Of a stretch of 18,165 nt of DNA, positions 4,666 through 16,415 are shown piece after piece. Below the pieces are notes generated by a model that was given only the letters and a program-made list of their open reading frames with translations, was not told where the DNA came from and searched no databases. Location: IMG/VR virus record IMGVR_UViG_2681813004_000010; one strand, given 5' to 3'. The stretch comes from a virus. Lineage: Duplodnaviria > Heunggongvirae > Uroviricota > Caudoviricetes. Each line of letters opens with the position of its first letter. Positions within the stretch are counted from its first letter, which is position 1. Both the position numbers and the translations under genes were made by a program.

Positions 4666-4941
4666 ATGTCGATGTACACAACCGCCCAGCTGCTGGCGGC
4701 AAATGAGCAGAAATTTAAGTTTGATCCGCTGTTTCTGCGTCTCTTTTTCCGTGAGAGCTATCCCTTCACCACGGAGAAAGTCTATCTCTCACAAATTCCG
4801 GGACTGGTAAACATGGCGCTGTACGTTTCGCCGATTGTTTCCGGTGAGGTTATCCGTTCCCGTGGCGGCTCCACCTCTGAATTTACGCCGGGATATGTCA
4901 AGCCGAAGCACTTAGCATGGCTTTCTGAGGCTTTCGTGTAG
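4666..4941 (+). pseudogene. E: major capsid protein gpE, 5' fragment (codons 1 to ~82, then 9 unrelated codons and a stop)
   Basis: MSMYTTAQLLAANEQKFKFDPLFLRLFFRESYPFTTEKVYLSQIPGLVNMALYVSPIVSGEVIRSRGGSTSEFTPGYVKPKH matches the lambda gpE N-terminus. After ~4911 the sequence becomes …LAWLSEAFV-stop and lambda collinearity ends. Intact gpE is 341 aa. Confidence 0.85.
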
Positions 4942-8439: not shown

Positions 8440-8727
8440 ATGAAAAATAAATTTTCTGGCTTTATTGCCAGCGGTCAAACTCATTCAAAAATCAGCCTTG
8501 GGGATATTTTCAAAGACAGCTATGGCTATCGGGTAAAGATTATTTCGGTTGATGATCGTCGTGTCTCTTATTTGCGTGATGGTTATGATTTTGAATGTGT
8601 TATGCCGCGTCAGCAGTTCGAAAGAGATTTCATTCTGGTAAAAAATTGCAAGACAGATAATCAGAGGCGTGCCGCAGGCTATATCCGTAAAATTCGGGCA
8701 ATGTTAGTTGCCGGAGGTAACAAATGA
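8440..8727 (+). CDS. hypothetical small protein (95 aa)
   Basis: GGAGAA SD 6 nt upstream; stop overlaps the primase start (ATGA). Confidence 0.5.
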   Translation: MKNKFSGFIASGQTHSKISLGDIFKDSYGYRVKIISVDDRRVSYLRDGYDFECVMPRQQFERDFILVKNCKTDNQRRAAGYIRKIRAMLVAGGNK

Positions 8728-10544
8728 AACGTGCTCCGAACTTAAAATACCAACCGCGCGACAAAATGACGGAAGTCATCATTTTTGCTGGCAGTGATGC
8801 CTGGAGCCATGCAAAAGAATGGAATGAATGGGCAGGTAAGCATATTGCAGCAGATGATACACCACCAGTCATTCTGGGTACGGAACAACTGGAAAACCTG
8901 GATGATATGCAAATTATCGATGAAGGCCGTCATTATGTGCGTGTTTATCGTGCCGGAAAGATTGCAGAGAAAAGTCTGACGAAGGTTGCGACATTACTTG
9001 CTATTGCAGGCGTAAAGGAAGCACGTTGTTACCGTAGCTTTGTTGATCGAGAGCCTGAAGACTGGACTCCGCGCCTTGTCGGCCTAAAAGCTGAAGCGGA
9101 GCATGGGGAAAGTCTGGTGATTGAACTGCCAGTGAAGAAGGCTGAGCGCAAAAATGACGAGCGTGCTTCATCTTTGGCGTTGAATCAGATGGGGGCCAGC
9201 CAGCGCGGTGAAGTTCTCCTTGCACATTACGGCGGCGAACTGGCAATCAATGCCGACTCTGACACCGTTCATCATTACAACGGCGTTGTATGGGAGCCGG
9301 TTCAGGATAAAGAGTTACAGCGTGCTATGGCGCAGATTTTCATTGATGCGGAGATCAGCTATTCGCAGAACGCTATTAAATCGGCGGTAGATACCATGAA
9401 GTTAAGTTTGCCTGTAATGGGGAATACAGCCCGTAACCTGATTGGATTCAGTAACGGGGTATTTGATACCAGAACTGGTAATTTTCGGGAGCATAACAAA
9501 AACGACTGGTTGTTAATTGCCAGTGAATTACCTTTCAGCCCACCAGCAGAGGGGGAAACGCTGGCAACACATGCGCCGAATTTCTGGAAGTGGTTGCGCC
9601 GTTCGGTGGCTGAGAATGACCGCAAGGCAGATCGCGTACTGGCGGCATTATTCATGGTGCTGGCGAACCGGTACGACTGGCAGTTATTCATTGAGGTAAC
9701 AGGGCCGGGGGGAAGTGGTAAAAGTGTGATGGCGGAGATTTGCACCATGCTGGCGGGTAAGGCTAATACAGTATCAGCAAGCATGAAGGCGCTGGAAGAT
9801 GCAAGGGAACGTGCGTTAGTGGTTGGCTTTTCGCTGATTATCATGCCGGATATGACCCGCTACGCTGGTGATGGGGCAGGGATTAAGGCCATTACAGGCG
9901 GTGACAAGGTGGCAATTGACCCGAAACACAAAGCCCCCTATTCAACGCGTATTCCGGCAGTAGTACTGGCGGTTAACAATAACGCCATGTCATTCAGTGA
10001 CCGCAGCGGGGGGATCTCACGTCGTCGGGTGATATTCAATTTTTCGGAAGTTGTACCGGAGAACGAACGCGATTCGATGCTGGCGGAAAAAATAGAAGGT
10101 GAGCTGGCGGTAGTGATTCGTCATCTGCTTACACGGTTTGCTGATCAGGACGAAGCCAGACGCCTGTTATATGAGCAGCAGAAATCTGAAGAAGCACTGG
10201 CGATAAAGCGAGAGGGGGATTCGCTGGTGGACTTCTGCGGCTATCTCATGGCATCGGTAATGTGTGATGGCCTATTAGTGGGTAATGCTGAAATTGTGCC
10301 ATTCAGCCCACGCAGGTATCTCTATCATGCCTATCTGGCTTATATGAGGGCACATGGGTTTGGTAAACCTGTAACACTGACGCGCTTCGGTAAAGATATG
10401 CCGGGGGCAATGGCGGAATATGGCAGGGAGTATATGAAACGGAAAACGAAGCACGGTTTGCGTTCAAACGTGACACTGACGGAGGAATCAGAGGACTGGA
10501 TGCCATCATGTGTATCGGTCACTAATGACGATAGCAAAAATTAA
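8724..10544 (+). CDS. replication primase/helicase, P4-family (D5-like SF3 NTPase domain)
   Basis: 606 aa. Walker A FIEVTGPGGSGKSV, hydrophobic Walker B …LVVGFSLIIMPDM…, then …GIKAITGGDKVAIDPKHKAPYS…, typical of phage/plasmid P4-family primase C-terminal domains. GGAGGT SD; iteron origin immediately downstream. Confidence 0.8.
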   Translation: MKRAPNLKYQPRDKMTEVIIFAGSDAWSHAKEWNEWAGKHIAADDTPPVILGTEQLENLDDMQIIDEGRHYVRVYRAGKIAEKSLTKVATLLAIAGVKEARCYRSFVDREPEDWTPRLVGLKAEAEHGESLVIELPVKKAERKNDERASSLALNQMGASQRGEVLLAHYGGELAINADSDTVHHYNGVVWEPVQDKELQRAMAQIFIDAEISYSQNAIKSAVDTMKLSLPVMGNTARNLIGFSNGVFDTRTGNFREHNKNDWLLIASELPFSPPAEGETLATHAPNFWKWLRRSVAENDRKADRVLAALFMVLANRYDWQLFIEVTGPGGSGKSVMAEICTMLAGKANTVSASMKALEDARERALVVGFSLIIMPDMTRYAGDGAGIKAITGGDKVAIDPKHKAPYSTRIPAVVLAVNNNAMSFSDRSGGISRRRVIFNFSEVVPENERDSMLAEKIEGELAVVIRHLLTRFADQDEARRLLYEQQKSEEALAIKREGDSLVDFCGYLMASVMCDGLLVGNAEIVPFSPRRYLYHAYLAYMRAHGFGKPVTLTRFGKDMPGAMAEYGREYMKRKTKHGLRSNVTLTEESEDWMPSCVSVTNDDSKN

Positions 10545-10557
10545 ACTTATGGAATAA

Positions 10558-10780
10558 CTGTTCACCACTGTTCACCCTGTCATAAATATCTTTTATATCA
10601 GTATATTATAGGGTGAACAGTTATTTATGAACTGTTCACCAAACTATTCACTGTTCACCTTTTTGATTGTTTATTGAGCTTCAAGGGTGAACAGTGGTGA
10701 ACAGTTGGTGAATAGTTTTTGTGAAACTGTTCACCCATTAACATTATGAATTAAAAGAGAAAATATCAAAAGGTGAACAG
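10558..10780. repeat. iteron array / candidate replication origin (9-mer CTGTTCACC and complement GGTGAACAG)
   Basis: Perfect forward copies at 10558, 10568, 10632, 10651 and 10727; reverse copies at 10612, 10686, 10696 and 10772; plus degenerate copies (CTATTCAC, GGTGAATAG, GGTGAAGG). Embedded in AT-rich DNA directly after the primase gene. Confidence 0.7.
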
Positions 10781-10831: not shown

Positions 10832-11077
10832 ATGACAGCGAAGCACACAAAAAAATCACAATCGCACGCCCTTGATTTGACTGAACACTGGTTAAGGGTG
10901 TCGATAAAAATCATCGACCGCAACGCCGGGGAAGGATACGCGAAAGCACATCCCGAACTGATTAGCGCATTCATGACAACGGCGGCTGCAAACTTTGCCA
11001 CTCTGACCGAACGGGAGATTGCTGAAGCGGAGGAAGTGACAACAATCAATATTAAGTCCGGAGAGCAGGCAGCATGA
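10832..11077 (+). CDS. hypothetical protein (81 aa)
   Basis: ORF between ori and ssb; stop overlaps the ssb start (ATGA). Weak SD. No family recognised. Confidence 0.45.
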   Translation: MTAKHTKKSQSHALDLTEHWLRVSIKIIDRNAGEGYAKAHPELISAFMTTAAANFATLTEREIAEAEEVTTINIKSGEQAA

Positions 11078-11605
11078 CGGCGCAAATATCAGTTTACGGG
11101 CGGTTGGTGGACGACCCGCAGACAAAACAGACCAGCAAGGGCACCCCCATGACGCTGGCGCGTATGGCGGTATCACTGCCTTGCAGTCAGTCGGATGACG
11201 GTCAGGCGACGATGTGGTTATCTGTCCTGGCGTTTGGCAGACAAGCCGACGCGCTGGCAAAGCATCACAAATGCGAACTCCTGAGCGTGGCGGGTAACAT
11301 GCAGATGAGCCAGTGGACTGGACAGAACGGCGAAACGCGGCAGGGCTGGCAGGTTATCGCAGACAGCGTAATCAGTGCGCGATCGGTGCGACCGGGCGGC
11401 AAAACAGAACGGCGAAACGCGGCAGGGCTGGCAGGTTATCGCAGACAGCGTAATCAGTGCGCGATCGGTGCGACCGGGCGGCAAAAAAGGCCAACAGGGG
11501 CAGGCTACTGACGCACTGAACAGAGCAAAACAACAGGCAGATCAGCAAGGAAGCCAGCCACCAGTGGGAGATAATGAGCAATGGGGAGATGATATCCCAT
11601 TTTAA
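11074..11605 (+). pseudogene. ssb: single-stranded DNA-binding protein (SSB), frameshifted by an internal 82-bp tandem duplication
   Basis: N-terminal OB-fold-like sequence MTAQISVYGRLVDDPQTKQTSKGTPMTLARMAVSL…WLSVLAFGRQADALAKHH…. The canonical SSB C-terminal tail …QPPVGDNEQWGDDIPF is present but in the +1 frame (track ORF 11375-11605). Removing one 82-bp unit restores a single ~150-aa SSB. Confidence 0.7.
11322..11485. repeat. perfect tandem duplication, 2 x 82 bp
   Basis: Unit acagaacggcgaaacgcggcagggctggcaggttatcgcagacagcgtaatcagtgcgcgatcggtgcgaccgggcggcaaa occurs at 11322-11403 and again at 11404-11485. 82 is not a multiple of 3. Confidence 0.9.
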
Positions 11606-13617: not shown

Positions 13618-13854
13618 GGGCCCGCTCTGGCTGGCGGGTCCTTTCCGGCGATCTGACAGGTTACGGGGCGGCGACCTCGCAGTTTTTCGCTATTTGTGAA
13701 AATTTTCCTGTTTAAGGCGTTTCCGTTCTTCTTCGCCGTAACTTAATGTTTTTATTAAAAACACCCCCTGAAAAGAAAGGAAACGACAGGTGCTAAAAAC
13801 AGGCTTTTTGGCCTCTGTCGTTTCCTTTCTCTGGTTTTGTCCGTGGAATGAACA
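13618..13854 (+). other. cos: lambda-type cos site (cosQ-like flank, cosN with 12-nt cohesive end GGGCGGCGACCT at ~13666-13677, cosB region up to Nu1)
   Basis: …gggtcctttccggcgatctgacaggttacg|gggcggcgacctcgc… matches my recollection of the lambda right-end / left-end junction; the downstream sequence up to the Nu1 ATG resembles the lambda cosB region with a few substitutions. Confidence 0.8.
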
Positions 13855-14400
13855 ATGGAAGCCAACAAAAAGCAGCTGGCTGACATTTTCGGTGCGAGTA
13901 TCCGTACCATTCAGAACTGGCAGGAGCAGGGAATGCCCGTTCTGCGAGGCGGTGGCAAGGGTAATGAGGTGCTTTATGACTCTGCCGCCGTCATAAAATG
14001 GTATGCCGAAAGGGATGCTGAAATTGAGAACGAAAAGCTGCGCCGGGAAGTTGAAGAACTGCGGCAGGCCAGCGAGACAGATCTCCAGCCAGGGACTATT
14101 GAGTACGAACGCCATCGACTTACGCGTGCGCAGGCCGACGCACAGGAGCTGAAAAATGCCAGAGACTCCGCTGAAGTGGTGGAAACCGCATTCTGTACTT
14201 TCGTGCTGTCGCGGATCGCAGGTGAAATTGCCAGTATTCTCGACGGGATCCCCCTGTCGGTGCAGCGGCGTTTTCCGGAACTGGAAAACCGACATGTTGA
14301 TTTCCTGAAACGGGATATCATCAAAGCCATGAACAAAGCAGCCGCGCTGGATGAACTGATATCGGGGTTGCTGAGTGAATATATCGAACAGTCAGGTTAA
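13855..14400 (+). CDS. Nu1: terminase small subunit Nu1
   Basis: 181 aa, MEANKKQLADIFGASIRTIQNWQEQGMPVLRGGGKGNEVLYDSAAVIKWYAERD…, near-identical to lambda Nu1 as I recall it. 26-nt overlap with A as in lambda. Confidence 0.92.
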   Translation: MEANKKQLADIFGASIRTIQNWQEQGMPVLRGGGKGNEVLYDSAAVIKWYAERDAEIENEKLRREVEELRQASETDLQPGTIEYERHRLTRAQADAQELKNARDSAEVVETAFCTFVLSRIAGEIASILDGIPLSVQRRFPELENRHVDFLKRDIIKAMNKAAALDELISGLLSEYIEQSG

Positions 14401-16114
14401 CAGGCTGCGGCATTTTGTCCGCGCCGGGCTTCGCTCACTGTTCAGGCCGGAGCCACAGACTGCCGTTGAATGGGCGGATGCTAATTACTATCTCCCGAAA
14501 GAATCCGCATACCAGGAAGGGTGCTGGGAAACACTGCCCTTTCAGCGGGCCATCATGAATGCGATGGGCAGCGACTACATCCGTGAGGTGAATGTGGTGA
14601 AGTCTGCCCGTGTCGGTTATTCCAAAATGCTGCTGGGTGTTTATGCCTACTTCATAGAGCATAAGCAACGCAACACACTTATCTGGTTGCCGACGGATGG
14701 TGATGCCGAGAACTTCATGAAAACTCACGTTGAGCCAACCATCCGTGATATTCCGTCGCTGCTGGCGCTGGCTCCGTGGTATGGCAAAAAGCACCGGGAT
14801 AACACGCTCACTATGAAGCGTTTCACCAATGGTCGTGGCTTCTGGTGCCTGGGCGGTAAAGCGGCAAAAAACTACCGTGAAAAGTCGGTGGATGTGGCGG
14901 GTTATGATGAACTTGCTGCCTTTGATGAGGATATTGAACAGGAAGGCTCTCCGACGTTCCTGGGCGATAAGCGTATTGAAGGCTCGGTCTGGCCAAAGTC
15001 CATCCGTGGCTCCACGCCCAAAGTGAGAGGCACCTGTCAGATTGAGCGTGCAGCCAGTGAATCCCCGCATTTTATGCGTTTTCATGTTGCCTGCCCGCAC
15101 TGCGGGGAGGAGCAGTACCTTAAATTTGGCGATAAAGAGACGCCGTTTGGCCTCAAATGGACGCCGGATGACCCCTCCAGCGTGTTTTATCTCTGTGAGC
15201 ATAATGCCTGCGTCATCCGTCAGCAGGAGCTGGACTTTACTGATGCCCGTTATATCTGCGAAAAGACCGGGATCTGGACCCGTGATGGCATTCTCTGGTT
15301 TTCGTCATCCGGTGAAGAGATTGAACCGCCTGACAGTGTGACCTTTCACATCTGGACGGCGTACAGCCCGTTCACCACCTGGGTGCAGATTGTCAAAGAC
15401 TGGATGAAGACGAAAGGGGATACGGGAAAACGTAAAACCTTCGTGAACACCACGCTCGGTGAGACGTGGGAAGCGAAAATCGGCGAACGTCCGGATGCTG
15501 AAGTGATGGCAGAGCGGAAAGAGTATTATTCAGCGCCCGTTCCTGATCGTGTGGCTTACCTGACCGCCGGTATCGACTCCCAGCTGGACCGCTACGAAAT
15601 GCGCGTATGGGGATGGGGGCCGGGTGAGGAAAGCTGGCTGATTGACCGGCAGATTATTATGGGCCGCCACGACGATGAACAGACGCTGCTGCGTGTGGAT
15701 GAGGCCATCAATAAAACCTATACCCGCCGGAATGGTGCAGAAATGTCGGTATCCCGTATCTGCTGGGATACTGGCGGGATTGACCCGACCATTGTGTATG
15801 AACGCTCGAAAAAACATGGGCTGTTCCGGGTGATCCCCATTAAAGGGGCATCCGTCTACGGAAAGCCGGTGGCCAGCATGCCACGTAAGCGAAACAAAAA
15901 CGGGGTTTACCTTACCGAAATCGGTACGGATACCGCGAAAGAGCAGATTTATAACCGCTTCACACTGACGCCGGAAGGGGATGAACCGCTTCCCGGTGCC
16001 GTTCACTTCCCGAATAACCCGGATATTTTTGATCTGACCGAAGCGCAGCAGCTGACGGCTGAAGAGCAGGTCGAAAAATGGGTGGATGGCAGGAAAAAAA
16101 GCGGTGTCTTATAA
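14375..16114 (+). pseudogene. A: terminase large subunit gpA, copy 2, truncated after codon ~575 (fused to E 3' sequence, ends …GRKK-SGVL-stop)
   Basis: MNISNSQVNRLRHFVRAGLRSLF… is collinear with lambda gpA through …EQVEKWVDGRKK, then reads 4 codons into E-derived sequence and stops. Copy 1 shows the normal continuation (…ILWDSKKRRNEALDCF…GEDE), so ~66 C-terminal codons are missing here. Confidence 0.85.
15134..16100 (+). repeat. direct repeat copy 2 (A gene segment), partner at 1-967
   Basis: See copy 1. The repeat ends at the A7 run (16094-16100), where copy 2 diverges into E sequence. Confidence 0.95.
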
Positions 16115-16415
16115 GGGAATGTATGGCGATGTGGCCATCGTCGTGTATTCCGGACAGTACGTGGAAAACGGCGTCAAAAAGAACTTCCTGCCGGACAACA
16201 CGATGGTGCTGGGGAACACTCAGGCACGCGGTCTGCGTACCTATGGCTGTATTCAGGATGCGGACGCACAGCGCGAAGGCATTAACGCCTCTGCCCGTTA
16301 CCCGAAAAACTGGGTGACCACCGGCGATCCGGCGCGTGAGTTCACCATGATTCAGTCAGCACCGCTGATGCTGCTGGCTGATCCTGATGAGTTCGTGTCC
16401 GTTCAACTGGCGTAA
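16098..16415 (+). pseudogene. E: major capsid protein gpE, 3' fragment (about codons 237-341)
   Basis: KAVSYKGMYGDVAIVVYSGQYVENGVKKNFLPDNTMVLGNTQARGLRTYGCIQDADAQREGINASARYPKNWVTTGDPAREFTMIQSAPLMLLADPDEFVSVQLA matches the lambda gpE C-terminus. It is joined in a different frame to A codon ~575 and has no own start except a fortuitous ATG at 16086. Confidence 0.85.

Follow-up and report, generated by a model that had tools for sequence, protein, structure and literature searches.

A head-to-tail 82-bp duplication that shifts the ssb reading frame in an Escherichia coli helper-embedded phage satellite

The SSB gene (ssb) of a phage satellite is interrupted by a perfect tandem repeat that leaves its conserved C-terminus in another reading frame, which raises the question of whether this arrangement is a recent inactivating mutation, a reversible on/off switch that operates by repeat collapse, or an artefact of assembly or amplification. 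All three had been put forward in an initial annotation of the DNA. The window, by which is meant the whole stretch that was analyzed (18,165 nucleotides; IMG/VR virus record IMGVR_UViG_2681813004_000010), is contig AOTC01000230.1 of the draft assembly GCA_001447405.1.

The repeat and the products of the interrupted gene

Tandem Repeats Finder reported positions 11322–11486 of the window as a single array (period 82, 2.0 copies, 100% matches, 0 indels, score 330), and by direct string comparison 11322–11403 and 11404–11485 were the same base for base, which confirms the two exact head-to-tail 82-bp units first described from the letters. Adjacent perfect 82-mers cannot have arisen by chance, and a 20-mer spanning the junction between the units occurred once in the window, against 0.00 occurrences expected from shuffles. 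The junction reads GGCAAA followed by ACAGAACGG, and the right edge of the unit is a GGCAAAAAAGG run. Beyond the unit, the match between the copies continues for 1 base (A) on the right and for none on the left, which limits the microhomology at the junction to at most 1 nt; when flanking direct repeats able to explain the duplication were sought, this 1 nt was all that was seen.

Copy 1 of the unit (11322–11403, + strand) is read in frame, from the third base of codon 83, where the duplication sets in, to codon 110; copy 2 (11404–11485, + strand), identical to copy 1, is read out of frame. Because 82 = 3 × 27 + 1, the native frame is left after residue 110. The disrupted ssb (11074–11511, + strand; taken from the open reading frame list) encodes a 145-aa product, WP_077854879.1, which is native through residue 110, including the OB fold, and then continues as a 35-aa out-of-frame basic tail, TERRNAAGLAGYRRQRNQCAIGATGRQKRPTGAGY, that contains seven Arg and one Lys and ends in KRPTGAGY. 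Since the frameshift falls after residue 110, the OB fold is complete, and the Pfam SSB family (PF00436; cut-off 26 bits) matched residues 4–99 of the restored and the truncated protein alike with a score of 55 bits.

The native 3′ end of ssb, which encodes the linker and the acidic tip (ending in GDNEQWGDDIPF, followed by the stop codon), is stranded at 11486–11605 (+ strand), in the +1 frame relative to the ATG at 11074 and within an open reading frame at 11375–11605. D-D-I-P-F is encoded at 11588–11602 and the stop codon lies at 11603–11605; this stranded segment has the same sequence as the 3′ end of the uninterrupted ssb of E. coli 980-2. The pair of open reading frames at 11074–11511 and 11375–11605 is as expected from the earlier claim that a unit not divisible by 3 shifts the frame and leaves the tail in +1. 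Tip and OB fold are not joined in one polypeptide in the window allele, and they are joined once one unit is removed. By comparison with the native protein, a 39-residue linker and acidic tip with a net charge of about −3 is lost and a 35-residue arginine-rich tail with a net charge of about +7 is gained.

Two routes by which the tip might still be made were considered and rejected. Separate translation of the stranded 3′ part would have to start at the GTG at 11375, ahead of which no Shine-Dalgarno-like sequence or ribosome-binding site was read from the sequence. Programmed frameshifting as a rescue would need a +1 shift, whereas the only slippery-looking run, an A6 at 11480–11488, would favor −1.

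Removal of one unit in silico gave a single protein with 100% identity to WP_032348758.1, the SSB annotated in E. coli 980-2; at 149 aa, it is close to the length of about 150 aa that had been predicted for a one-unit deletion. With a 901-bp query around ssb, three complete E. coli genomes matched at 100% identity and many more at 98–99.9%, and every match listed spanned about 819 bp in the record, that is, one unit; the 82-bp duplication is the sole difference between the window allele and the intact alleles. Because the surrounding 819 bp are 100% identical to the three one-unit genomes, with no further change, the event is taken to be recent. Across 14 kb shared with E. coli 980-2, the 82-bp insertion was the one indel in the window and the other island genes were full length; by this measure, the sequence quality of the contig looks good.

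The satellite and its SSB family

The interrupted gene belongs to a satellite of about 10 kb in which the order is integrase, AlpA, a variable zone, a D5-type primase, a small open reading frame, ssb, capsid, decoration protein, HTH protein and small terminase, the late genes encoding a lambda-E-like capsid protein, a D-like decoration protein, an HTH protein and a Nu1-like small terminase. Pfam matches along the contig, all on the + strand, ran from Phage_cap_E (in a 91-aa fragment) through Phage_integrase and Phage_AlpA to D5_N/DUF5906/Pox_D5; the integrase and AlpA genes stand at the left end, co-oriented with the primase gene and with the helper late gene that the element interrupts. The satellite is a helper-embedded PICI (HE-PICI) in capsid gene E of a lambdoid prophage, a type of satellite already known and described by Mageeney et al., 2023 (PMC10111431). 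It shares with the described elements of type 11capE (site E:Phage_cap_E:80; PMC10111431) the co-oriented insertion in a lambda-E-like capsid gene, at about codon 80, in a lambdoid prophage, the gene order, the primase-SSB replication zone, the ori iterons and the late zone, but differs from them in having a replaced right end, no attR and a frameshifted ssb. An E gene interrupted in this way is also seen in E. coli 980-2, where the annotation gives a capsid pseudogene in two parts.

In HE-PICIs, the SSB gene sits with the primase gene in a replication zone beside ori, and the PICI ori is located downstream of pri (PMC10111431). The primase/helicase gene of the window (8724–10544, + strand; D5_N, DUF5906, Pox_D5) occupies a replication zone in common with ssb. 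Iterons of the sequence GGTGAACAG were found 21 times in the window against 3.9 expected, and ten of them, in both orientations, are clustered at 10558–10780, in an AT-rich stretch that separates the primase gene from the small open reading frame upstream of ssb; the cluster is probably the satellite origin of replication. The small open reading frame (10832–11077; 81 aa) overlaps the start of ssb in an ATGA at 11074–11077, an overlap that suggests translational coupling, and in one relative (P0042, 220 aa) the 81-aa frame and ssb are fused as one open reading frame. The 81-aa protein had no Pfam match. Immunity RNAs, which are reported in some HE-PICIs, gave no Rfam match at gathering thresholds, and nothing relevant was found in the literature on a special role of SSB in Gram-negative PICIs.

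PDB structures of SSBs aligned with residues 4–104 of the protein (best E = 5e-11). In a pairwise alignment with E. coli SSB, identity over the OB fold was 22%, and W48, F54 and W81 stood opposite W54, F60 and W88 of E. coli SSB, while the W40 position was not conserved. The restored satellite protein resembles E. coli SSB, the model of the homotetrameric bacterial SSBs, in its single OB fold with counterparts of W54, F60 and W88, followed by a low-complexity linker and, at the C-terminus, D-D-I-P-F. It differs from E. coli SSB in having its gene on a satellite instead of the chromosome, in having a much shorter linker and in its total length (149 aa versus 178 aa). The D-D-I-P-F tip of bacterial SSBs is a docking site for partner proteins.

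A search for relatives with the restored protein returned 630 clusters at E ≤ 1e-10, nearly all from E. coli, Salmonella and their kin, with lengths of 136–151 aa. When the best 120 of these 630 clusters were taken together with the query, about 110 of the 121 representatives ended in D-x-[ILV]-P-F, the others being sequences cut off at a contig end or, in a few cases, alleles with a frameshift or a fusion (P0082, P0115, P0078 and P0067). Across these representatives, the tip is conserved in the satellite SSB family and disruptive alleles are rare and sporadic. In P0082, the frameshift lies at the A6 run marking the right edge of the 82-bp unit and leads into the same nonsense frame as in the window allele; other alleles of the family contain short tandem duplications (9 or 24 nt) that keep the frame, and the boundary between OB fold and linker looks prone to indels when these alleles are compared. 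The relatives of the window ssb in which an indel or loss of the tip was noted are P0082, P0115, P0078, P0067, P0081, P0084 and P0075.

Occurrence of the two-unit allele and structure of the contig

A 36-mer across the junction (11386–11421) had 0 matches in 5,426 complete E. coli genomes, whereas a control 36-mer from inside the unit was present in 1,139 of the same genomes, at 1,296 places. The exact junction likewise had 0 matches in JGI metagenome contigs, in GTDB species representatives (one genome per species) and in IMG/VR, and the whole repeat region (11300–11510) gave no megablast match in 50,697 GenBank phage records. At the protein level, a search covering 153 billion gene positions found the exact 145-aa product on one contig only, AOTC01000230.1, which is the window itself. 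A search of the protein collection with the nonsense tail had as its sole match a 38-aa open reading frame from a different E. coli assembly (on a 5.25-Mb contig); this frame was ruled out as a duplication allele, being an alternative-frame reading of a stretch of single-unit length with a GTG start just upstream of the unit. In the collections searched, the two-unit allele is private to one draft assembly. Conservation of the two-unit form in related islands, which had been raised as a sign of a fixed pseudogene, was not found at any of the 1,296 homologous loci.

The satellite ssb region as such matched 1,530 of the 5,426 complete E. coli genomes. At the nucleotide level, this SSB lineage appears to be confined to satellites and prophage-embedded elements.

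In this contig, the island has an unusual right end. The attL site (4896–4916, + strand) lies inside the helper capsid gene E, at the end of the E N-terminal fragment (4666–4941, 91 aa), and is the only match to the att pattern; no attR with a matching identity block was found in the window. From about 14190, the contig continues into a helper-type Nu1 gene and then into codons 1–579 of terminase A (14375–16114), and at 16098–16100 it jumps from A to E (at about codon 238) through an AAA microhomology, the E C-terminal fragment occupying 16104–16415. E resumes at the equivalent of L001 17145, about 470 bp beyond the attR of E. coli 980-2, so that relative to that strain DUF2971, attR and about 470 bp of E are missing. 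The A/E junction at 16098–16100 was absent from the 5,426 complete E. coli genomes. Replacement of the right end (13933–16415) could have come about by capture of late genes followed by a deletion, by recombination with a second defective prophage, or by misassembly. Because attR is missing, the island is probably not transferable, and its loss fits an immobilized element that is gathering lesions.

The first 967 bp of the contig, which are the 3′ part of terminase A, recur at 15134–16100 with one mismatch, at position 924 (T versus G). The repeated stretch begins right at the end of the contig, so that it is probably part of a longer repeat within which the contig broke off.

In the cos region (13660–13690; cosN 13666–13677), the window has the lambda cohesive-end sequence GGGCGGCGACCT where the near-identical satellite of E. 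coli 980-2 has GGGCGTCAGGCG, and the SNPs on either side of this patch are of the satellite type. Such a small helper-like patch suggests gene conversion between satellite and helper. Across the cos/terS region as a whole, satellite-type and helper-type SNPs alternate in a fine mosaic; no single misjoin can yield such a pattern, so that real recombination has shaped the locus.

Origin and consequence of the duplication

The reading we favor, and consider probable, is a spontaneous, recent and strain-private tandem duplication in the accessory ssb of an E. coli HE-PICI. Codons 83–110 (82 bp) would have been copied head to tail by an illegitimate template switch or strand exchange that used at most 1 nt of microhomology. 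From what is known of bacterial SSBs, the truncated protein would be expected to retain binding to ssDNA and to have lost the recruitment of replication and repair partners, and with partner recruitment lost it would be a loss-of-function allele of a conserved satellite replication gene; this loss of function is extrapolated from E. coli SSB, to which identity over the OB fold is 22%. The proposal of a recent inactivating mutation stands in part: the change is recent and private, but "inactivating" is too strong a word for an allele in which the OB fold (residues 4–99) is untouched and the linker and tip are lost. The predicted product is comparable to engineered tail-less SSBs, from which the last 8 residues were removed, in that the DNA-binding domain is retained without the partner-docking tip, and differs from them in that it was truncated naturally, by a frameshift that also appends a basic nonsense tail. 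The lesion is of an ordinary kind, in a known gene family and a known kind of satellite.

Collapse of the repeat to one unit would be physically expected at low frequency. Tandem repeats of 101 bp collapse without RecA in E. coli, and in uup radD cells deletion on a multicopy plasmid was found in 8% of cells, reported as 96-fold above wild type (PMC7145654), which places the wild type at roughly 1e-3 on a multicopy plasmid. The ssb repeat is like the 101-bp tetA repeats assayed in the Lovett and Cox laboratories (PMC7145654) in being a perfect repeat inside a gene, the collapse of which would restore function; those are engineered reporters, whereas the ssb duplication is natural.

An artefact of assembly, library or amplification, in a strain that truly carries one unit, is a good deal less probable than the duplication itself, and yet it is the alternative that deserves most weight. 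The two-unit allele is found in one draft contig, AOTC01000230.1, in which the A/E junction is likewise absent from complete genomes and the first 967 bp recur at 15134–16100 from the exact contig end, so that the assembler was working through repeats and could have run into trouble; moreover, neither of the two private junctions has independent support in a protein collection that includes Logan assemblies of sequencing runs. Against an artefact, it is generally the case that assemblers collapse tandem repeats and do not make them, and a new junction is assembled only from reads that run across it. The contig also has no other indel relative to the closest complete genome in 14 kb, its neighboring genes are full length, and the SNP mosaic at cos/terS is beyond what one misjoin would give.

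A reversible contingency switch, in which gain and loss of the 82-bp unit would move SSB between tip-bearing and tip-less states, is very unlikely. Since 3 does not divide the unit length, the frame depends on copy number, and in this respect the locus resembles phase-variable contingency loci built on simple-sequence repeats, where repeat copy number decides whether a full-length protein is made; in addition, RecA-independent collapse of perfect tandem repeats some 100 bp long is frequent enough to be measured, and the 3′ end is still there, intact and undamaged. Known contingency loci, however, have short units of 1–7 bp, not 82 bp, and many copy-number alleles between strains, not two copies only. 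No copy-number polymorphism was seen here, with two units at 0 of 1,296 homologous loci and none in the other collections, so that the on/off switch suggested in the initial annotation is not supported. The gain step, with almost no homology to work on (at most 1 nt of microhomology), would also be far rarer than the loss step, and no unusual DNA secondary structure that might drive slippage was found around the repeat (z = −0.48).

Selection for a new function is improbable to a similar degree. Here an SSB reduced to its OB fold and a basic tail would be advantageous, for example by interfering with the replication of a helper or rival phage or by evading a defence that senses SSB. The OB fold is fully kept, and tip-less alleles have arisen independently in the family (P0082, by an A-run frameshift into the same nonsense frame, and P0115, P0078 and P0067), but such alleles are rare in a family in which about 110 of the 121 representatives carry the tip, the two-unit allele was found once only, and an island without attR is probably not transferable. 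A selectable two-state allele, silent and tip-less until repeat collapse restores it at high copy after induction, or a tip-less OB protein that acts as a dominant interfering factor on helper or rival phage replication, is the least probable reading of all; its sliver of likelihood comes from the undamaged 3′ end and from the repeated appearance of tip-less alleles in the family. Were the switch or the selected new function true, a new way for a satellite to modulate replication machinery would be at hand; the data do not point there.

The result has little importance beyond annotation. WP_077854879.1, which is named SSB by RefSeq, is the frameshifted, tip-less allele and should be treated as a probable pseudogene or a possible assembly error. 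As a natural case, it is a clean one, in which a tandem duplication was formed with almost no microhomology and the ancestor can be fully reconstructed, and the ssb duplication and the lost attR together illustrate the decay of a helper-embedded satellite. In a protein collection clustered at 90% identity, the 145-aa SSB (11074–11508) falls together with satellite major capsid proteins in a cluster of 1,275 members, which probably reflects chaining through fused or misjoined open reading frames, a database oddity and not biology.
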